From the IMG/VR virus record IMGVR_UViG_3300033153_005726, positions 64,001 through 86,423 of that record: a stretch of DNA of 22,423 nt. The stretch is one strand, 5' to 3'. Position 1 is the stretch's first letter. Each line of letters begins with the position of its first letter. The stretch comes from a virus. Lineage: Duplodnaviria; Heunggongvirae; Uroviricota; Caudoviricetes. The notes under the pieces are model-generated. The model had not been told where the DNA came from. It saw nothing but the letters and a program-made list of their open reading frames with translations, and made no database searches. A program made the position numbers and the translations under genes. Of the stretch, positions 3,697 to 20,814 are shown piece by piece.

Positions 3697-4122
3697 TTAA
3701 TTAAGTTCGCCTGTGTCTGTATAAAACATATTAAACACTAAACGCATTCCAAGTACATCGGGCAGACCGTAGCCTGTTGGACCTTCTGTGCGAATTTCTT
3801 GGATAAACGTGTTGTCGGCCACAACAGGGGTATCCGATAATACAACAGAACGCACATTTCTGTATAACTCTTTTACATCATATTCCCTATCAGTAATAAT
3901 TTCAAGAACAACTTCAAGTCGCCTTCTCATAGGGTAACCAAATTTTCCACGTGAAGATGTGTCTATTACTTCATCAACATCTTCAACCATAAATATACAC
4001 GGTAGGTAGCCTTCGTCAATAGGTTTTGTGGGTGAACGCTTAAACCCTTTTAATCCAAGGGCGTCTTTCGCAGTATAAATGCGGTCATAAATTTTAATCA
4101 ACCCATTTTCTCTATTTTGCAC
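3697..4122 (-). CDS. Tail terminator / tail completion protein
   Basis: 141 aa, immediately upstream of the tail tube; LPCIFMVEDVDE motif typical of terminator-like proteins; mainly synteny. Confidence 0.6.
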   Translation of the reverse strand: MQNRENGLIKIYDRIYTAKDALGLKGFKRSPTKPIDEGYLPCIFMVEDVDEVIDTSSRGKFGYPMRRRLEVVLEIITDREYDVKELYRNVRSVVLSDTPVVADNTFIQEIRTEGPTGYGLPDVLGMRLVFNMFYTDTGELN

Positions 4123-4612
4123 GCTGTAATCCGTCCATAATTATATTACCAACAGTTTTGGCAAGCCTATTGGCATATACATCTGTTATTATTTGGTTGA
4201 CAGTACCTCCCGGTGCTGATCTAGACCAAATACGTTTCTCTGCACCACCTGATCCAGGGGTTGTTAATTCTACAGTTTTTGGACCCATTTGAGGCCATGG
4301 TGCATTTCCTGGGATAACACCTTCTTCTATATACACACCATATCCAACTTGGTTGTACACAGAAAATTGTGCGATTTGTTTATTTGTGTCTTGTACTCTC
4401 CAGCCATGAGAATATCTACCTTTATCATATGGGGCTGCTTTCCTTAATAGGTCACGTACAATGTGGGCAGAACGAGATACATGTAAATAAATATTCTTCT
4501 CAGCTTCAACCATATTCTTTTGTAAAGAAGTGGTTAAAGAACGCAGGGCCTTATCATGCACAACAATAAGCTTACCCTTACTAGGATCAAACTTTGGTCG
4601 TCTCTTGGCCAT
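4112..4612 (-). CDS. Neck/tail completion protein (HK97 gp10-like)
   Basis: APYDKGRYSHGW...VYNQVGYGVYIEEG resembles the gp10 pattern (APvdTG.L..Sw...Ya.yvE.G); synteny. Confidence 0.7.
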   Translation of the reverse strand: MAKRRPKFDPSKGKLIVVHDKALRSLTTSLQKNMVEAEKNIYLHVSRSAHIVRDLLRKAAPYDKGRYSHGWRVQDTNKQIAQFSVYNQVGYGVYIEEGVIPGNAPWPQMGPKTVELTTPGSGGAEKRIWSRSAPGGTVNQIITDVYANRLAKTVGNIIMDGLQRAK

Positions 4613-4983
4613 TAGGTTTTCCTTAATAGTAAGATGTACAAGGCTTCTGCAGGATCTGTTTTATATGCAATAATAGCATACGTGATTGTATCGTCCCTGA
4701 CGATAACATCCCTAGTTGATAAAGAAGTTATACCATTATCACGTAACTGCTTGCCTCTGACAAGACCTTTTACGTCAGTTGGTTGGATTAAATTAGAAAA
4801 AGATAAAAATTGAACATCTCGCTCTGCGAAAGTATCAACTATTAAATCTATTGGGTGAGAAGTGCTTGTATCAACATCAAAGCCGTCTTTTTTGACCACA
4901 GTATATTGTGCTTTGTACACAAGGCTTTTAAATACCTTGAAAACAGTCACAGCAGCCTTTTGAAACGTCGTATTCAATGACAT
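4612..4983 (-). CDS. Head closure / head-tail joining protein
   Basis: 123 aa beta-rich protein between the adaptor and the gp10-like gene; synteny. Confidence 0.6.
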   Translation of the reverse strand: MSLNTTFQKAAVTVFKVFKSLVYKAQYTVVKKDGFDVDTSTSHPIDLIVDTFAERDVQFLSFSNLIQPTDVKGLVRGKQLRDNGITSLSTRDVIVRDDTITYAIIAYKTDPAEALYILLLRKT

Positions 4984-8593: not shown

Positions 8594-8651
8594 GGTATTC
8601 CCTCCAGGAATAGTTGCAGTAGTCTCTGACTACCAAGTCGTCCGTTGTGGA

Positions 8652-10220
8652 CTATTTTTTGCCCTTTTTAGGCTGTGGTTTCTTTTTCGGTGCTTCTAGT
8701 TCTTTCTTTTTATCTTTACCGTCATTATTATCATCTTTCTTGGGGTTGTCAATAGGATTTCCATCGTCTATCAAATCAGTCGCTGTAGAAACAGCTTCTT
8801 CAATTGTAAGGCCAGCTTCGTCAAAAACTTTTTTACCTTCAATGAGTTGCTCTATATATTCTTTTTCACTTATAGTCTGATCAAGTAAACCGGAACCTAC
8901 AAGATATTTATGAATAACACCAAGTGGAATAACATTTTGGCCAAAACCTTCAAGAATACTTCTGATAACATTAGAATCAGGTATCCCGTAAGTCAATGCG
9001 GATGGTGCATCAATAATAACATCGTCTTTATTAAATCCAGCCCATTTGCACATTAACTCAAGGCCACCTTTAACAGCATTGAGTGCAGAAAGGTACACAC
9101 TGTAGATACTAGCTGATTGTGTAGCCTGACGGATACGGAGTGCTTCAGCAGACTCAACACCTTTACGTGAATCAAGAATGGCAACACCATGACGAATAGC
9201 TTCCTCATATAAATCATCAATATGAGTCTTGACATGCTTTAATGCTGCTGTATCAGTTTCGGTATAAAAGATACGTGCCTGTGGGTCAGGTAGAACAATC
9301 ATTACTGAGGAGCCAACCACATTAGGTAGATCGTCATCATTAGAAGCGCCAACCATGCAAAGAGTTGGATTGCAACTAAGGAACTCGCTATTTGCGAGGT
9401 CTGCTTCTTTTCGATAAATCTGGATGGAACAATTAGCCACAGACAAAAGTGGGATAGGCTGATTGTCAGTACTATTGTTAATAGAACCAGCAACAAAAAG
9501 TGGAAGTTCATCAATTGTTGAGCCCATATAAGAAGGTTTTGTAAAAAAGTCAGTAAGCTCATGTCCTTTATCATCATATAAATGAGAAACGTAGTTACCA
9601 TCTTCCATACACAATACTCTGTATACATCAACTGTGTCATGCGAGAAAATATCTTCATCTGAAGGCATTGCTTCTTTCAAAACACCTAGAATGAGGTTTT
9701 TCTCTGAACCCATTGACTGCTCTTTCCAGTTAATAAAAGCTTCTGCATTGTATTTAACAAATTTGAACTGATTAGTTCCAGGGTCAATATCAACTACCAA
9801 TGGACACTTACCTGTTTGGAGAATCTCAATAACAATCTCCATAAACAACTGCTGAATAGTAATACCATCCTTTGTTGCTTCTTTAAGGATATACTCCATT
9901 TGTTTAGGGACGTTAAATTCAGGTAGTTTAGTTATAATGACACCCAAGGCACCTTGAAGTGCATACGAACAAATTTGGGGGTAATGTGCCCTCTCAATGT
10001 ATGCGTCATAGGCTTCAGCAAATTCACCTGTCATACCGCCAGGGCGTGGAAGGTACTTTTCAGTTTGCAATTTAATATGAGATTCACTTTGAATACAATC
10101 ACGGATTCTATCCCAATCTTTTTCCTGGGACATATAATTGGGATGTTTTAATGTAGGATCAGAACTTTCAGTAATTCTCTGTTTCCCTGCGAATACTTCT
10201 GCACCTTTATTAATAGTCAT
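8652..10220 (-). CDS. Portal protein (DUF4055 / SPP1-like)
   Basis: HPNY...WDRIRDC...EKYLPRP...YDAYIERA...PIPLLSVANCSIQIYRKEADL...ESAEALRIRQ; directly after TerL. Confidence 0.9.
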   Translation of the reverse strand: MTINKGAEVFAGKQRITESSDPTLKHPNYMSQEKDWDRIRDCIQSESHIKLQTEKYLPRPGGMTGEFAEAYDAYIERAHYPQICSYALQGALGVIITKLPEFNVPKQMEYILKEATKDGITIQQLFMEIVIEILQTGKCPLVVDIDPGTNQFKFVKYNAEAFINWKEQSMGSEKNLILGVLKEAMPSDEDIFSHDTVDVYRVLCMEDGNYVSHLYDDKGHELTDFFTKPSYMGSTIDELPLFVAGSINNSTDNQPIPLLSVANCSIQIYRKEADLANSEFLSCNPTLCMVGASNDDDLPNVVGSSVMIVLPDPQARIFYTETDTAALKHVKTHIDDLYEEAIRHGVAILDSRKGVESAEALRIRQATQSASIYSVYLSALNAVKGGLELMCKWAGFNKDDVIIDAPSALTYGIPDSNVIRSILEGFGQNVIPLGVIHKYLVGSGLLDQTISEKEYIEQLIEGKKVFDEAGLTIEEAVSTATDLIDDGNPIDNPKKDDNNDGKDKKKELEAPKKKPQPKKGKK

Positions 10221-10221
10221 A

Positions 10222-12723
10222 TTAAAATCTCACTTTACGTCTCTTCATTTTAGTAAATTTACGGGTCAATCCGTAACGGAGTGCATCCATTGCATGATCC
10301 TCTAAATCAGAATCAATATCCTCAGGTTTTTTATCATCAATCTGCTGAATAGGTAAAGTTCTAATGTGATGTCTTGCAGGTTCTTGGAAATAAAGTCCAG
10401 GATTTTCAAGGTCACCCCGTTTGGCTGCACCAAGCATAGTTCGCATCAAACCCCAACCAGCTACACGACTACCGCTTCCTTTATAAGCTTTCCGCCAATG
10501 TAACCCATGACGTTGCATATTAGATGCAAGTGAAGAACCATCACGTACTTCATAAATATTTGTATCAGCGGGTCCTGGCCTCACCCTTACTTTAAACTCC
10601 CTTTCAATGTTTCTGTCAACTTCTAAAACACGTTCAGCAATATCTTGTGATGTTGCACGGTCACCTTCGTTGACCGTTCCATTCCAACCGTATAACTCAT
10701 TTATAACAATTGAAGAGCCATCTGGGAAATAAGGTAATTCTTCATCAGGGGCATCAGGTTGCTCTCCATTACATTCTGCAATATAAGTAACTGCCCATGG
10801 TTTTGAAGAACCCCAGTCAAAACTTCTGATAACATCCCAACTTGACGGGATTTGGAAATAGGGAAGTATATGTTTTGCAGGATCCCATAAATCAGTGAAA
10901 AACCCACCAGCAATAATATCCCACTCACCAAGTACCCATGCTTTATACTTAACAGGATCATCAGCAGCAGCAGCTAAGATAGTATTAACATAATTTGGAT
11001 CTGCGTCAAGTAATGTGGTATTCTCACTCAGGCTTGAGGGTATATGAACCCTTGTTTTCATACTTTCTTTATCAAGAAAGAATTTCATTGCGGGCATAGG
11101 GTCGATAAAACGCTGCTTCACCCAACCATGTCCTGGACCTGAAGGGTTGCAGGTACTACGATACTTTCTTGGTACATCAGGGTCTGAACAACGGTTACAT
11201 GACATCATTGAAAGATAACATTCGTCTGTAGCCCAGTTTGTAAGCTCTTCCCAACCAATCCAAGGATATTCATGACCATGATAGTTCCAGTAATCACTTG
11301 GTACACGCATATATCGCAAATATAAGGTTTCGCCGTCAGGGAATGTCCATTTATGCTCACTTCCGTTATATTTGGCTCCAGGGAATATTTGACTGATCCA
11401 TTTCTTACTTTTATTGATTACATCGGTTAATTGAGTGTATTCTTCACGAAAAAGAATACCACGCCATTCAATACCATAGCCTACACCCACATGCTGCAAG
11501 AAATCCATCAAGAGTACATCAGTATTGTGTGTTACGATAAAATCATCTGTTAGGTAAAGTCCATTTGGATTATTTACCTTAATACACTGACATTCTTCTT
11601 TTCCTATCAAATCTATGCTAACTATTTTGCGCACTAACCTACCATGCATATAATCAGCGGCTTTATCTTTTTTACGTTGTAATCTAAACAGTTCTTTTTG
11701 TTCAGGCAACCGTATATAAAGACCCCAACCTTTTTTTGTTTTCTTATAAAAACCTTTAGGCCACTCTGCTTTTCTATACTTGAATTGGTTCCCACGCTTC
11801 CCACCAATCAGTGTAGACCACCCACCTAAACTACCAATCAAAAACTGAATGTCTTTTATTAATGTATAAGAAGCGCTAGAATAATAGGCTTTTCCATCAT
11901 GAGCCTCTCCGTCAGTATCCATTAAACCTTGTAGTAAAGCAATCCTATCTTCTATAGAAGCATAGAGGTATTTTTTAGGTACAAATTTTGTATCGCTTTT
12001 AGTTCCCCGTAATTTAGAATGCTTTAAATCGTCATATAGCGGATTGTTTCTACGTATTTGCAACCCTATACAACTACCATCTCCTTTAACAGTAGTCGTT
12101 TTGGTATTATAAAAACCAAAACGACTAACGTAATCAACTAATTCCTGATCACCTGTATGAAAACAAACATCTTCTCTACTAAGAGATCCATCCCCTAACA
12201 ACAACCCTAATAAATAAGGATCAAAAGAATGTTGTGCTTTACTACTTATTCCTTTATTAAAAGAAACAGGTTCTGGGCAAGGTATTAAAAAAGTATTTCC
12301 AGCTTTTACTTTTTCTATAAGTTGGGTAGTTGTATAAATGTATCCACTAAATTGTAATGGGGCATATATTTTGTCTTTATTTCTGGATTTATTCCTATTG
12401 GCTACTTTTCCATACCATAAATGCTCATCAGTGCAGTGAGTGACACTACCATCTGAAAATTTAATTCTATATACATCTTGAACCCCTTGTGGGTACACAC
12501 CAATAACAGTACTGCACGTACCATCTGGGTTGAAGACACGGCTACCTATTTGCATTTCGCCTACAGTACGTTCCCCGTATGGGGTCTGCACAGGTGATGA
12601 TAGTGGTTGAGCTTTCCCACCACCACGGTTTCCGGCAATTAATGCCTCATCAGCAGGGCAAGTCAGGAACTTTTTCTGACTTCCAGGATGTGGTTGCCAT
12701 ATGACTTTATCTTGCGCAATCAT
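10222..12723 (-). CDS. terL: Terminase large subunit precursor (470 aa after removal of a 363-aa intein)
   Basis: Walker A GNRGGGK|T split by the intein, Walker B IGWEELT, TCNPSGPGHGWVK, nuclease residues FDWGSSKP and DHAMDALRY. Confidence 0.95.
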   Translation of the reverse strand: MIAQDKVIWQPHPGSQKKFLTCPADEALIAGNRGGGKAQPLSSPVQTPYGERTVGEMQIGSRVFNPDGTCSTVIGVYPQGVQDVYRIKFSDGSVTHCTDEHLWYGKVANRNKSRNKDKIYAPLQFSGYIYTTTQLIEKVKAGNTFLIPCPEPVSFNKGISSKAQHSFDPYLLGLLLGDGSLSREDVCFHTGDQELVDYVSRFGFYNTKTTTVKGDGSCIGLQIRRNNPLYDDLKHSKLRGTKSDTKFVPKKYLYASIEDRIALLQGLMDTDGEAHDGKAYYSSASYTLIKDIQFLIGSLGGWSTLIGGKRGNQFKYRKAEWPKGFYKKTKKGWGLYIRLPEQKELFRLQRKKDKAADYMHGRLVRKIVSIDLIGKEECQCIKVNNPNGLYLTDDFIVTHNTDVLLMDFLQHVGVGYGIEWRGILFREEYTQLTDVINKSKKWISQIFPGAKYNGSEHKWTFPDGETLYLRYMRVPSDYWNYHGHEYPWIGWEELTNWATDECYLSMMSCNRCSDPDVPRKYRSTCNPSGPGHGWVKQRFIDPMPAMKFFLDKESMKTRVHIPSSLSENTTLLDADPNYVNTILAAAADDPVKYKAWVLGEWDIIAGGFFTDLWDPAKHILPYFQIPSSWDVIRSFDWGSSKPWAVTYIAECNGEQPDAPDEELPYFPDGSSIVINELYGWNGTVNEGDRATSQDIAERVLEVDRNIEREFKVRVRPGPADTNIYEVRDGSSLASNMQRHGLHWRKAYKGSGSRVAGWGLMRTMLGAAKRGDLENPGLYFQEPARHHIRTLPIQQIDDKKPEDIDSDLEDHAMDALRYGLTRKFTKMKRRKVRF
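11524..12612 (-). mobile_element. Intein with LAGLIDADG homing endonuclease, Ala1 start, class 3 WCT signature
   Basis: Starts AQPLSSPVQTP, block B TDEHLW, LAGLIDADG motifs YLLGLLLGDG and LLQGLMDTDG, block F CQCIKV, ends IVTHN followed by Thr+1. Confidence 0.93.
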
Positions 12724-13157: not shown

Positions 13158-13766
13158 TTAATTCTCACCTTCCCATTCTTTCTGGGATTGTTGGGCAGGT
13201 ACCATGAGTACACCAGCAGTAATGTTTAAATTTTTACTCTCCATTTTATCAGAGTATCCAAGTTTATTTCCTGCAAGAAATTTAAACAGGCCAGTATTGT
13301 AACTTCGGTTATCAAGGTTTTCTTTACCTTCACGTAACCACCAAGCCTCATGCATATCTTTACCAATATCATAAGCGGTATTGAAATCAGCAAATCTCTC
13401 AGACCACCCTCGCAGGGTAGTTACACTAACCCCAAATTCAGCAGCAATCTCAACATCGCTTAATCCCTCTCGGCTCAAAGCAATGAATTGTAAAGGGTGA
13501 CCATCAGGATCGTATTTGGTATTCATCAAAGTACCTATAGGAATTTCTCTGACTTCCAATAAGTTCTCTTTAATCACAGGGTCACCACCACACCGTTTGC
13601 AAATCACTCCTTTACCAACAGCATTATGCGTGCACCCTTCAGTCATGCATTGTTCTTTAGGGTATCGTTTAATAACTTTTATCTTGGGTTCACTTTTAAG
13701 TTTTTCAGGCCGTCTTAACTTTTTCTTACCTGACCCAACGCTTAACCTTCTACGTAATTTAGACAT
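13158..13766 (-). CDS. terS: Terminase small subunit with N-terminal Cys4 motif and HTH
   Basis: TKYDP...GLSDVEIAAEFGVSVTTLRGW..RFADFNTAYDIG...EAWW is a typical TerS HTH; located upstream of TerL. Confidence 0.8.
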   Translation of the reverse strand: MSKLRRRLSVGSGKKKLRRPEKLKSEPKIKVIKRYPKEQCMTEGCTHNAVGKGVICKRCGGDPVIKENLLEVREIPIGTLMNTKYDPDGHPLQFIALSREGLSDVEIAAEFGVSVTTLRGWSERFADFNTAYDIGKDMHEAWWLREGKENLDNRSYNTGLFKFLAGNKLGYSDKMESKNLNITAGVLMVPAQQSQKEWEGEN

Positions 13767-14031
13767 GAGATAAATCTCCTAAAGCATTTTGATACATCCT
13801 GATATCAAGAGTCTGGTCAAGCATATCAGCAAGTAAAGTATCTACAATAAATCCACTAAGTCCTTTGGCAGTATCCCCTTCCCATTCATCCATAATACTG
13901 TGGCATACGTCAAGGACATGATCTTGAACCTTCTGTGCATCATTACCACAAATAACATAGTGCAGGGCACAAACACTATCCCTGATTGAAACTGAGGTAA
14001 CTCTACCATTTATTCTTGTTGATACTTTCAT
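13759..14031 (-). CDS. Hypothetical protein, first gene of the late operon (possibly ribbon-helix-helix-like)
   Basis: 90 aa; the beta-strand-like start KVSTRINGRVTSVSIRD is reminiscent of RHH proteins; overlaps the TerS start by 8 nt. Confidence 0.5.
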   Translation of the reverse strand: MKVSTRINGRVTSVSIRDSVCALHYVICGNDAQKVQDHVLDVCHSIMDEWEGDTAKGLSGFIVDTLLADMLDQTLDIRMYQNALGDLSHV

Positions 14032-14086
14032 TCCCTGTACACTCTTTCATTCCCTGTACACTCTTTCATTCCCTGTACACTCTTTC
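14025..14086. repeat. 3.3 x 19-bp tandem repeat CTTTCATTCCCTGTACACT
   Basis: Exact copies at 14025, 14044 and 14063; each carries AGGGAATG on the minus strand. Confidence 0.95.
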
Positions 14087-14112
14087 CTTCTATTGGATGA
14101 TCAATTGATACC

Positions 14113-14241: not shown

Positions 14242-14285
14242 GGTCAAGAGATGGTCAAAGAATGGTCAAGGGATGGTCAAGGGAT
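14242..14285. repeat. 4 x 11-bp tandem repeat GGTCAARRRAT
   Basis: ggtcaagagat, ggtcaaagaat, ggtcaagggat, ggtcaagggat. Confidence 0.9.
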
Positions 14286-14464: not shown

Positions 14465-14503
14465 TTAAATGATGTTTTTAAATGATGTTTTTAAATGATG
14501 TTT
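14465..14503. repeat. 3 x 13-bp tandem repeat TTAAATGATGTTT
   Basis: Exact copies at 14465, 14478 and 14491. Confidence 0.95.
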
Positions 14504-14698
14504 TATTTCACTACCACTTCACAGTACCTTGCATAAATAAAGCAGCTCAGGGAATAAAAAGAAATACCTTGATAAAACCTTGTACCGCCCCGTACAGCGT
14601 TTTTTACATACTGGGTATGCCATTGTACCATTAAACCTGTTACAGACGCATGAGCAGCTCTACAGAGGTCTTTAAAGGTTCTTGGTGATGCTGGTTAT

Positions 14699-14894
14699 AA
14701 GCGTAAGCGTGAATATAAGCGTAAGCGTAAGCGTAAGCGTGAATTGATAACTAAAATACCACGATAGCACGATAAAAAGCTGTCAGGATGAGAAAAGCGT
14801 AAGCGTGAATTGATAACTAAAATACCACGACAGCACGATAAAAAGCTGTCAGCGTGAATTGATAACTAAAATAATACGCTAGTACGATAAAAAG
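14699..14894. repeat. AAGCGT hexamer runs plus 3 x ~50-bp direct repeat AGCGTGAATTGATAACTAAAATACCACGATAGCACGATAAAAAG
   Basis: Long units start at 14736, 14802 and 14851 (third more diverged); eight AAGCGT copies. Confidence 0.95.
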
Positions 14895-14999
14895 TTCTCC
14901 GCTATAGATGCCCCCGCCCCTGTTTCAAACAAAAGGCATCAAAGTAAAACCAAATGAAAAAACAACGCTAAAACAGGTATTTAAAAGTGAAATTAAACC

Positions 15000-15027
15000 T
15001 TGCAATAGTATATAAACACTGCATAAT
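15000..15027 (+). promoter_or_regulatory. Probable sigma70 early promoter
   Basis: TTGCAA-N16-CATAAT in AT-rich context, followed by hairpins at 15036-15056 and 15063-15076. Confidence 0.6.
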
Positions 15028-15104
15028 AAATCATGGCAAGTGAATAATCACTTTGCTATATAGCTGAATTTTCAGCAAAAATTCATACCTTAAAGGGTGA
15101 TAAA

Positions 15105-15809
15105 ATGAAAGTAACAAAAAACAGTAGTAATGGTAATGGCAACAACGTAGCAAAAACATCAAAAATTCAAGTAGTTAGCATTAATAACAGGCGTGCAATA
15201 AATGCACCCACTACTGTACCGCAAGTAGTTGAAATGACTGATGTTTTTAAGCAAGTGCAATCACTGAGTAGTTTAACAGTTGAAAATGGGTATTTACTTG
15301 ATGCAAGTGGTTGTTATTACTCACCATTTGGGCATGGTAAAAAACGTGAACTGGCTAAAATGGCAAACAACGCCCAAATTGATGTGGCCTTGTGTCAAGG
15401 GGCCGTAATGATTGATATTTTAGTAAGTGATACTGATACGCCAAGTAGGGTATGCAATAGGCATAATGAGTATGATATTGAAAAACGGCCTGAATGCAAT
15501 AACACACTAAATCAGCTATTTACACTTGATTTAATTTATAATCACTTAGCATTTTTAAGTGGTAAAGGTAATGGCAAAAATAGCCTACAAAAACGGTTAC
15601 TTAACACACTTGACAAAGCCACTATTGAGCAAGTGAATGACATTGCTAGCCAGGTACATGAAATCATTACAAAAATGTGGGTTACGTGTGAGCATATGAT
15701 AAACACACGTGATGGTAGTAAAAAGCATAGTGCTCAACAGTACCAACAAACCTGTGAAATATCAGGTACTTACGGCAGGTCATTCAGTACCAAAGCAGCA
15801 ATTGTATAG
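15105..15809 (+). CDS. Hypothetical early protein, paralog of 20326-20814
   Basis: SD variant AAGGGTG; shares SPFGH, ID.ALC.G and HL.FLSG..NGKN.L..RL with the paralog. Confidence 0.85.
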   Translation: MKVTKNSSNGNGNNVAKTSKIQVVSINNRRAINAPTTVPQVVEMTDVFKQVQSLSSLTVENGYLLDASGCYYSPFGHGKKRELAKMANNAQIDVALCQGAVMIDILVSDTDTPSRVCNRHNEYDIEKRPECNNTLNQLFTLDLIYNHLAFLSGKGNGKNSLQKRLLNTLDKATIEQVNDIASQVHEIITKMWVTCEHMINTRDGSKKHSAQQYQQTCEISGTYGRSFSTKAAIV

Positions 15810-15821
15810 CTGGTAACTAAC

Positions 15822-15848
15822 ACCTTGCCAGCATAGTGCTGGCAAGGT
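15822..15848. other. Perfect 12-bp inverted repeat between early genes
   Basis: ACCTTGCCAGCA-TAG-TGCTGGCAAGGT; no U tract. Confidence 0.9.
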
Positions 15849-15882
15849 AACTAACTGATAACACATAACAAAGGACAACAAA

Positions 15883-16044
15883 ATGACAATTACAATCAAT
15901 ACGCAAACTACTGAAATCATTGACAATAATGACCTACAGCAATTAGCTGATGATTGTCAGCAACTTACTGAAATCATTGATGAATTTAATGACCTGAATA
16001 CTGATATTGATTATGAGCTACTTGATGGTACAATCATCAAATAA
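15883..16044 (+). CDS. 53-aa highly acidic protein (not in the ORF track)
   Basis: SD AAGGA, MTITINTQTTEIIDNNDLQQLADDCQQLTEIIDEFNDLNTDIDYELLDGTIIK; 13 D/E versus 1 K. Confidence 0.8.
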   Translation: MTITINTQTTEIIDNNDLQQLADDCQQLTEIIDEFNDLNTDIDYELLDGTIIK

Positions 16045-16147
16045 GTGAACAATTACAATGAGTTAGCTATGTTAGCTCATTGTGCTGGTTTACTTATAAA
16101 CCAAATGGCAATATTGCCAACAATAACACCTACTTAGGGGTAACAAC

Positions 16148-16825
16148 ATGAACTTAATTGAAAGTAATGACTACCAAACAACCCGTTTAAATAACCGTTT
16201 TAACTCATTAAATTTGAATGACCTGCAAGCTGAGACGGTAATTTGTATAGCATATGCAATATGCTATACACTTGATGAATATGAAAATTTCATGAATAAA
16301 ATCAGTATTGCAGGCACTATCGCTGATAATGTTGATGATATAGTAAAGCAGTTTAATATTGCTCATTTTGTTGGCTGCGATGATGTACTTACCGGACCAC
16401 AATGTATAAGTGAATTCACTGAAATTGAAAATAAGTATAAACACCCCACGGCAATAACGCCAACCACCCCTACAACTGAGGACGTAAAAATGACTGATTT
16501 ATCAATGACTAATTTAACTGGTAAAATTGAATCAAGTGAACCTGATGTATGTTTTGAATCATTGAATGCTATGAACATCATGTTTTGTGTAATGAGTATT
16601 GATCCAATGCTTGAATATGCACAAGCCACAAAAATTGTAAATTCAATACGGTATGCAACAAACCACGTTGAGTTTGACTGGACACCAAGTTTACAACTTG
16701 ATGAAGTGAGCCAAGTAATTTTCATGGTAAATGATAAGTACAATAAAAGTAATGCTGATTTTGATGCTTCACAAATGCTTGATATGTGTGATTACGAACA
16801 CAAAAACGCATTTAAAATAGTGTAA
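16148..16825 (+). CDS. Hypothetical acidic protein, possible internal start at 16490
   Basis: SD variant TAGGGGT; 225 aa open frame. Confidence 0.8.
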   Translation: MNLIESNDYQTTRLNNRFNSLNLNDLQAETVICIAYAICYTLDEYENFMNKISIAGTIADNVDDIVKQFNIAHFVGCDDVLTGPQCISEFTEIENKYKHPTAITPTTPTTEDVKMTDLSMTNLTGKIESSEPDVCFESLNAMNIMFCVMSIDPMLEYAQATKIVNSIRYATNHVEFDWTPSLQLDEVSQVIFMVNDKYNKSNADFDASQMLDMCDYEHKNAFKIV

Positions 16826-16840
16826 TCATTAATCATTAAC

Positions 16841-16874
16841 TAGTTGCTGGTAGCAATAACGCTACCAGCAACTA
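16841..16874. other. Perfect 14-bp inverted repeat between early genes
   Basis: TAGTTGCTGGTAGC-AATAAC-GCTACCAGCAACTA. Confidence 0.9.
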
Positions 16875-16891
16875 CTACCTAGGAGAACGAC

Positions 16892-20325: not shown

Positions 20326-20814
20326 ATGACAAATCTTAACACTTTCAAAGCTATTGCCGAGAGAGCAGTCAATTCACCTAAGATAGCTGAAATTACAGAC
20401 GCCAATGCTGCATTGGATGAGCTTAGACTTCTGAATCTGCAGGGGCAGATGCAAGGTAATCGCCACTTGTCACCGTTTGGACATAACGCTACTGCTACCA
20501 ACGGGGATATTGATTTTGCTCTGTGTCGTGGGGAGCGTTTGTTGGACGATGTGATTGACAAAGTAAGTCGTTTCAAGAAGACACGTAAGGCTGACTATAG
20601 TACAGACAGAGGCGCATTGGCAAAATGTGTAGATCAGCACTTGAAATTCTTGTCAGGCCGCAATAATGGTAAGAATCGCCTTGCAGACCGCCTTATACGC
20701 TTCATGGGTGAAGATAAAATGGCACAGGCCATTGAAATGGAAGCTCAGATACACGCTATCATGTCACCTATTTACGATAGGATGCACACTGCATACCTTG
20801 CCACCTATAAGTAG
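20326..20814 (+). CDS. Hypothetical early protein, paralog of 15105-15809
   Basis: SD TAGGAGG; shared motifs as above. Confidence 0.85.
   Translation: MTNLNTFKAIAERAVNSPKIAEITDANAALDELRLLNLQGQMQGNRHLSPFGHNATATNGDIDFALCRGERLLDDVIDKVSRFKKTRKADYSTDRGALAKCVDQHLKFLSGRNNGKNRLADRLIRFMGEDKMAQAIEMEAQIHAIMSPIYDRMHTAYLATYK

Follow-up and report, generated by a model that had tools for sequence, protein, structure and literature searches.

A 2-kb block purged of a three-nucleotide word upstream of terS in an uncultured tailed phage, and blocks purged of other short words at the same place in its relatives

The uncultured tailed phage described here (Caudoviricetes) is known from an 86,423-bp contig (IMG/VR record IMGVR_UViG_3300033153_005726, here G000; CheckV completeness ~69%). 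Its final 22.4 kb, positions 64,001 to 86,423 of the record, were analyzed as one stretch of 22,423 nt, called the window below. Upstream of the small terminase subunit gene (terS), the window holds a block almost free of the trinucleotides AGA, CGA and GGA (VGA) and of their reverse complements TCT, TCG and TCC (TCB). Over the 1973 bp of this zone (window positions 14909-16881, unless said otherwise), only 9 VGA/TCB were observed, compared with 127.1 expected from the rest of the genome (Poisson point probability ~1e-42). The zone is conserved in place among related uncultured phages, and the banned word switches between lineages.

The purge is strictest in the first 1324 bp. In this core (14909-16232), exact counting against the rest of the genome gave no AGA/TCT (45.5 expected), no CGA/TCG (12.2 expected) and a single GGA/TCC (27.6 expected), the GGA at 15873, which lies 8 nt ahead of the ATG at 15883. 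A preliminary description, made from the sequence alone, had reported the same single exception, about 80 TGA/TCA, and several dozen expected VGA/TCB. The computed expectation is ~85, and TGA/TCA are indeed raised, with 81 copies against 59.5 expected. A mild enrichment was found in the zone for AAA/TTT (1.36x) and CAA/TTG (1.46x). From 16233 to 16880, 8 VGA/TCB were found versus ~42 expected, the first being the AGA at 16233 and the last lying at 16795, and the usual density is back from 16882. The preliminary description had set this part apart as one of about eight exceptions before normal usage; the count holds, but the zone is better taken as one unit, 14909-16881, with nine exceptions that are mostly VGAC (5 of 9). 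In this zone, RGA is banned most strictly when the next base is A, G or T, and the ban is leaky for VGAC.

Both the abrupt left edge and the indifference to strand and coding status, as first described, were found again. Immediately left of the zone are a CGA (14885), a TCT (14896), a TCC (14898) and an AGA (14906), after which the next VGA/TCB comes only at 15873. On the plus strand, the exceptions are 7 VGA and 2 TCB, and the 196-nt non-coding leader is as purged as the genes. Outside ~15-16.8 kb, sliding counts ranged between 26 and 53 VGA/TCB per 500 nt; within it, two consecutive intervals had 0. The two widest VGA/TCB gaps in the 86,423 nt (967 and 360 nt) are both in the zone, and no trough elsewhere is comparable, the widest gap outside being 135 nt; in the other 84 kb of the contig the words are near expectation. 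The identical gap statistic revealed nothing comparable in phage Seurat, and the first-step-transfer DNA of T5 has no absent 3- or 4-mer, so that the signal is not one that phages of this kind show in general. The zone and the features that belong to it are the following, together with a paralog of its first gene.

14909-16881, both strands: VGA/TCB-free zone
15000-15027, plus strand: weak sigma-70-like promoter match, TTGCAA-16-CATAAT (a consensus match only)
15105-15809, plus strand: z1, first early gene, 234 amino acids (aa), isoelectric point (pI) 8.8, 0 VGA/TCB
15883-16044, plus strand: z2, 53 aa, pI 4.05, 13 D/E and 1 K/R; its probable ribosome-binding site has the only GGA of the core
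16148-16825, plus strand: z3, 225 aa, pI 4.28, with 8 of the 9 zone exceptions
16841-16874, plus strand: hairpin with a perfect 14-bp stem, closing the operon; -24.8 kcal/mol, z -6.6
20326-20814, plus strand: e11, paralog of z1, ~4.5 kb downstream; internal control

The right edge follows the end of this operon. The zone ends 8 nt past the hairpin, and the first VGA/TCB to return is at the ribosome-binding site of the gene after it. The zone is therefore one leader-plus-operon unit.

Codon habit does not account for the purge. When the genes were resampled synonymously, with the proteins kept and the codon usage of the genome applied, z1 was expected to have 44.4 +/- 5.4 VGA/TCB (minimum of 23 in 2000 resamplings), compared with 0 observed; for z2 the values were 8.7 versus 0, and for z3 42.1 versus 8. 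The signal thus survives a correction for codon and amino-acid use, under which the preliminary description had allowed that it might vanish. Serine is never encoded by TCT in the zone genes (0/33), although this is the commonest Ser codon of the genome (38% of Ser codons elsewhere). Similarly, AGA is used for none of the 12 arginines (27% elsewhere), and GGA occurs in 1/18 cases. The ban extends into the zone proteins via constrained dipeptides: those of the form [EKQMW][DE], in which the first codon is unable to end in T, were found once, with 12.5 expected.

Homologous genes provided a second line of evidence. The only database relative of z1, a protein here called P0002 (43% identical), is encoded in DNA of normal word density. 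At 19 word positions of its gene the residues are conserved, and the window uses alternative synonymous codons, including the multi-step swaps from TCC to AGT and from AGA to CGG. Neither of these has a deamination path. The paralog e11, one of the later early genes of the same genome and outside the zone (29% identity, E 2e-17), has 34 VGA/TCB in 489 nt, compared with 0 in the 705 nt of z1. Two relatives, L029 and L065, have first zone genes that are 51% identical and carry different bans: the former has 0 VGA/TCB and 7 CCC/GGG, the latter 28 VGA/TCB and 0 CCC/GGG. Together with the resampling, these comparisons identify the cause as selection on the DNA sequence itself, which acted at the codon, dipeptide and non-coding levels.

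Relatives were gathered with the portal and terS genes. This gave ~28 distinct viral contigs (14 by portal and 28 by terS, many of them shared) and 59 metagenome contigs. No cultured relative was found at the DNA level, and none in the bacterial genomes searched; the portal is ~27% identical to the portals of the Queuovirinae. A word-free block of 1-2.2 kb lies upstream of terS wherever the sequence suffices, in more than 15 uncultured relatives. The banned word varies by lineage and is VGA, VGAD, GGAW/GGAA, GAAG, GGY, CCC or YCCA. The undescribed short specificity proposed in the preliminary description is strengthened by these relatives, which ban other 3-4-nt words at the same place. Counts for the zones of individual relatives are given as observed/expected.

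L001: VGA, 0/146, 2123 bp
L062: VGA, 0/150, 2046 bp
L061: VGA, 1/98
L012: VGA, 5/108
L029: VGA, 8/105
L007: VGAD, 8/128
L034: GGAW, 4/52
L099: GGAA, 0/35
L085: GAAG, 0/29
L065: GGG/CCC, 0/33
L013: TGGR/YCCA, 9/44
L014: TGGR/YCCA, 10/44
G006 (complete, 123,866 bp): GGT/ACC, 0/39 over 2224 bp; GGC, 5/18

In the complete genome, G006, the word-free block is unique and sits at the sole point where the early and late strands diverge. In the pooled VGA-type zones, AGAD was observed 1 time versus 294 expected, GGAD 8 versus 217, CGAD 11 versus 102, and VGAC 68 versus 112. Phages of the VGA and CCC types share one sample series. Across lineages, most zone genes are unrelated, apart from a divergent first-gene family to which z1 belongs.

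Nine zones (window, L001, L012, L029, L007, L034, L013, L014 and G006) were examined for second-tier words. GAAG/CTTC was depleted four- to five-fold in all nine, whatever the main word (39 observed versus 184 expected). GAGG/CCTC (16/84, observed/expected) and GATC (16/64) were depleted in most of them. GAAG, GAGG and GATC are thus second-tier avoided words common to the lineages. A general avoidance of 4-bp palindromes in the zones was rejected, since only GATC was consistently depleted.

The distal edges of several zones resemble that of the window. In G006 (24-bp perfect arms), L029 and L001, a strong hairpin lies behind the final zone gene, and L001, L007, L029 and G006 have tandem repeats or hairpins at the distal zone edge. 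Repeats or palindromes would be expected as the injection stop signal behind a first-step-transfer region of the T5 type, a role that these, and the window hairpin, may have. The zone of L001 also contains ~900 nt of non-coding DNA (L001:8192-9113) with 28-30% GC, which is word-free too, and its leader has nested inverted repeats of 24 and 28 nt (8618-8751). No end repeats were found in the contigs of the relatives, whose assemblies pass through both zone edges, and a collapsed repeat would escape notice without read depth.

On its left side the zone adjoins a region that separates it from the late genes.

13158-14031, minus strand: late operon start, directed away from the zone, with a 90-aa open reading frame (ORF; 13759-14031) and terS (13158-13766); PHROG matches
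14698-14906, unstranded: terS-side repeats, with AAGCGT runs and three direct repeats of ~50-66 nt; VGA/TCB free to occur
14910-14944, unstranded: boundary element, made of a C-run, ~12 nt, an A-run and GG(G), where the zone starts; candidate cos or end site

The 90-aa ORF and terS are conserved in all relatives, and are followed to the left, on the minus strand, by terL, portal, scaffold, capsid and tail genes. The boundary element was aligned across eight lineages and is recognizable in at least 10 further relatives, including L026, L032, L035, L038 and L060-L099. In every relative that has it, two to three lineage-specific direct repeats come before it on the terS side. Where the element is present, the banned word reaches to within 0-12 nt of it and then ceases. 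In cos regions of the lambda type, a conserved element with terminase-side repeats lies just upstream of terS. The same layout was found here, with a short conserved element, repeats on the terminase side and a position upstream of terS. By this analogy, the boundary element has the look of a cos site next to its terS-side repeats, and the direct repeats are candidate terminase-binding repeats, similar to cosB. The region upstream of terS in phage M6 is arranged differently, and its comparison yielded nothing.

The 950-nt gap between the two coding strands holds several tandem repeats. Three short arrays, at 14025-14090, 14242-14285 and 14465-14504, occupy the stretch from the late operon to the terS-side repeats and have repeat units of 19, 11 and 13 nt; possible roles are those of late promoters or operators, or of packaging signals. 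The large terminase subunit TerL (window 10222-12723, minus strand) has 833 aa, and over its residues 400-827 it shares 51% identity with TerL of Pseudomonas phage M6/YuA. Other terminase ATPase families and P-loop families of primases and helicases are matched by the 400 residues before them, which points to an additional or duplicated ATPase module at the N terminus, or else to an insertion. The TerL counterpart in G006 has 892 aa.

The zone genes gave few matches. The z1 family is very divergent and supplies the first zone gene in the relatives, with shared FGH and HL..L.KR motifs. The z1 protein itself matched no PHROG or Pfam family and had no usable Atlas match, and its poor AlphaFold model (pLDDT 54) matched no PDB fold. 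For z3, no relative was detectable. The small acidic z2 protein is a candidate DNA mimic or inhibitor. No PHROG or Pfam match was obtained for z1-z3 or for the next seven ORFs, and no Rfam family matched.

The reading that we favor, with somewhat better than even confidence, is that the zone enters the cell first and contains no target for a cutter, of the host or of the phage, reading 3-4 bases. The physical end at ~14909, the order of entry and the cutting of DNA by the reader are inferred. The left edge, placed on a conserved element next to the terS-side repeats, agrees with a physical end and with DNA that enters first. The zone would be the final 2 kb before a cos-like site, with the leader and the hairpin-closed first early operon z1-z3. 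If packaging starts at this site and runs into the terminase genes, the zone would be packaged last and ejected first. It would then be alone in the cell during the expression of its genes, which point inward. During that stage, it would be exposed in a way that other parts of the genome are not, and a DNA cutter reading 3-4 bases could strike wherever the word occurred, whereas a segment without the word would escape cutting.

The reader would be lineage-specific, since different short words are missing from this place in the relatives, and it could be either a host immune function or an early nuclease of the phage. A host function, PAM-like (protospacer adjacent motif) or restriction-like, is a tentative choice. 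An early nuclease of the phage, shredding host DNA as proposed for A1 of T5, is more doubtful. We hold in similarly low regard a specific version, in which a lineage-variable pre-early cutter (VGA, GGY, CCC, GGAA, GAAG or YCCA) acts while the first 2 kb are inside, possibly as a phage nuclease that shreds the host chromosome and to which the pre-early operon would be immune through its lack of the word. If a pre-early phage nuclease were the reader, this would be the first sequence-level answer to the question of how T5 destroys host DNA and spares its own, and the nuclease would represent a new class with ultra-short, programmable specificity.

Several observations are in line with a cutter. 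The near-total loss of ~130 expected sites, despite protein constraint, fits a single copy being costly, most simply through cutting. As in restriction avoidance, the depletion is found on both strands and goes beyond composition and codon use. The words are PAM-like in being 3-4 nt long, asymmetric, with a YC/GR core and absent from both strands, which is a resemblance only. The nested words VGA, VGAD and GGAW, with their common YC/GR core, suggest one evolving reader family.

Other points weigh against this interpretation. The first-entering status derives from the analogy with lambda-type packaging and from the conserved element, and G006, as well as the YCCA clade at its approximate boundary, is without the C-run element. 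To our knowledge, none of these words belongs to a known nuclease, restriction system or CRISPR type, and no restriction enzyme of VGA, GGY or CCC specificity is described. A host whose system reads 3 bases would have to shield ~6% of its genome positions from it. No nuclease or anti-defence fold is recognizable in the zone genes, and VGA-type zones share no clearly conserved gene past the divergent z1 family, which weakens the idea of a zone-encoded nuclease. Finally, 6-bp palindromes are avoided in the bulk of G000 (CAGCTG 0/17.8, AGGCCT 0/7.1 and GGATCC 2/10, observed/expected) and of G006 (CTGCAG 0/19.8, GGATCC 0/13.6, AACGTT 0/9.3 and TTCGAA 0/8.1). The zone products are therefore no general nuclease shield for the bulk. 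Classical restriction pressure thus acts genome-wide, and the 3-nt ban is an extra one, limited to the block. A relation between zone length and tape-measure length, as for a DNA end held in the tail tube, was rejected: the tape measure has 3875 aa for a zone of 1.97 kb in G000, and 1754 aa for 2.22 kb in G006.

Rather than lacking a target, the zone could lack a mark: VGA would be modified everywhere else, and the operon would enter as plain DNA, for the sake of the host polymerase or of modification-dependent restriction. We consider this unlikely. Phage base-modifying enzymes do read words of similar size. GA is a target of DpdA in phages iggy and CAjan, and the CAjan enzyme additionally acts at GGC and GGT (PMC10484667), which VGA and GGY echo; thymidine hypermodification at TG/TC, inferred for M6, ViI and phi W-14, is another case of short-word reading (PMC6449724). 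In addition, the portal is distantly similar to those of the Queuovirinae, and G006 encodes an orphan N6/N4 DNA methylase (88269-89039), which, like its DnaG-type primase (zinc ribbon and Toprim domains; 3902-4843), was not found in the 86-kb contig. However, neither PF01702 (TGT/DpdA) nor PF06508 (QueC) was found in G000 or in G006, the complete 124-kb relative, while the controls were positive. Among other large relatives, PF01702 was not found in G003, G004, G007 and G008, nor PF06508 in G003, G004 and G007. Phage Seurat, which has dpdA and preQ0 genes, has no word-free zone. These results led us to reject DpdA and deazaguanine. A thymidine mark at TG/TC (PMC6449724) was rejected too: it misfits the abundant TGA/TCA in the zone, and the ThyX encoded in G000 makes an ordinary T probable. 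Words are near expectation in the bulk of G000, and palindromes that hold the word are not tolerated there, with an observed/expected ratio of 0.54 (n=5) versus 0.82 for those without it (n=39), in a small sample. They are thus avoided at least as strongly, which disfavors a protective mark on all VGA. The hypermodification at VGA/TCB that the preliminary description had offered as an option, with dpdA and queC as genes to look for, is weakened accordingly.

A word of this kind might also be the site of a phage primase, of the DnaG or T7 type. Its absence would keep Okazaki primers out of the last 2 kb on either strand, which would leave long single-stranded tails for the joining of concatemers, or a packaged end without nicks. 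Known primase sites are GTC (T7), GTT/GCT (T4) and CCC (Aquifex), and the banned words have the same length of 3-4 nt and can all be written with a pyrimidine core. As templates, TCB, RCC, CCC and CTTC would give the primers pppGA, pppGU/GG and pppAAG. The primase of G006 has both a zinc ribbon and a Toprim domain, the nested VGA, VGAD and GGAW resemble one drifting protein family, and a terminal repeat would account for two sharp edges. Nevertheless, no terminal repeat was seen in any assembly, and the distal edge tracks the end of the operon, which is irrelevant to replication. A single priming event should be cheap, so that counts of 0/146 and 0/150 and a recoding of proteins seem excessive. 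One primase would also leave the extra depleted words unexplained, both GAAG in all nine zones and GAGG and GATC. We regard this explanation as unlikely. In G006, four intein-like insertions (L050, L054, L055) were found at 8739-11132, 95797-97806, 101933-104035 and 104787-108551. They interrupt a DEAD/ResIII helicase, a 5'-3' exonuclease, a clamp loader and a family-A DNA polymerase, the last of which also carries a uracil-DNA-glycosylase domain at its N terminus.

A third explanation, which we regard as very unlikely, is that the word is a preferred context of the TerL nuclease, through which the last DNA to be packaged passes slowly, and that the ban prevents cuts ahead of cos. The zone does adjoin the putative packaging site on the last-packaged side, and reading would fall to a core phage gene evolving together with its lineage. 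Such protection predicts a gradient set by head fullness rather than a stop where an operon ends, and it too does not explain the extra depleted words. We know of no such sequence preference of TerL nucleases. Finally, a mutational footprint, left by a context-specific deaminase or mutator at an exposed end (TCB to TTB, VGA to VAA), would agree with the mild enrichment of AAA/TTT and CAA/TTG but is ruled out by the L029/L065 pair and by the replacements at conserved residues, which are synonymous and of all kinds, transversions and three-base swaps included, with VAA or TTB at only 9 of 70 aligned word sites in the window (5 VGA, 4 TCB), proteins that are intact and conserved, and bans of GGT/ACC or GAAG elsewhere that no single deamination rule explains.

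That first-entering DNA may avoid targets is, in principle, known already: T5, T7, Murciavirus and the leading regions of plasmids are examples. Our literature search found no report of a sharp-edged block fully purged of a degenerate 3-nt word and bounded by a conserved end element, nor of relatives that ban other 3-4-nt words at the same place. No restriction site as short as these words is known to us. The pattern can be read as the footprint of a reader of very short words, whose specificity it gives for at least seven lineages without an experiment. It makes immunity of early phage DNA by lack of nuclease sites directly testable. In uncultured phages, a motif-free gap with a boundary element could serve as a signature for the leading end and for immediate-early, probably anti-defence, genes.

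The closest comparison is with T5, in which EcoRI sites and CRISPR targets matter only within the first-step-transfer DNA (bioRxiv 10.1101/866236). Davison proposed that this DNA is without sites of the phage's own nuclease, A1 (bioRxiv 10.1101/866236), and how T5 DNA escapes A1 is still open (bioRxiv 10.64898/2026.04.02.716235). If the leading-segment reading holds, both phages have a discrete leading segment with its own early genes that enters first, and both are long-tailed siphoviruses with genomes of ~110-125 kb. The segment is ~2 kb here, compared with ~10 kb in T5, and it is purged of a whole 3-mer class, whereas that of T5 lacks no 3- or 4-mer. Homologs of A1 and A2 were not recognizable among z1-z3 by PHROG and Pfam. 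The sole Metallophos protein of the contig (G000 5210-6154) is encoded outside the zone and adjoins an SbcC-like ATPase gene.

At the leading end of T7, the early promoters lie near the end, gene 0.3 (Ocr) comes first, and entry is driven by transcription up to a terminator. The window zone is similar in its early genes, which point inward from the putative end, in the acidic z2 and z3 proteins (pI 4.05 and 4.28) and in the closing hairpin. It differs in having no Ocr homology, and T7 is not known to us to purge a 3-nt word at its leading end. Genome-wide avoidance of restriction sites or PAMs is known in phages and likewise depletes short words on both strands by selection, whereas the 3-nt ban of the window is limited to one 2-kb block with base-sharp edges. 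The DpdA phages of the Queuovirinae (PMC7544227, PMC10484667) are similar in the size and letters of their words, and their structural genes are distantly related; TGA is exempt in the window, however, while the GA motif of iggy has no 5' restriction (PMC10484667).

Whether Murciavirus phages are sensitive is determined by Type I motifs in their leading region (PMC12455610). These phages and the leading regions of conjugative plasmids (PMC11541004, PMC13478746) share with the zone, as we read it, the principle that the presence of a motif in the first-entering region decides survival. Such leading regions vary strongly, and anti-defence genes are presumed to lie in them (PMC12455610, PMC11541004, PMC13478746). 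They differ in that ordinary Type I motifs in few copies are concerned there, whereas here ~130 expected copies were removed and the word switches between lineages.

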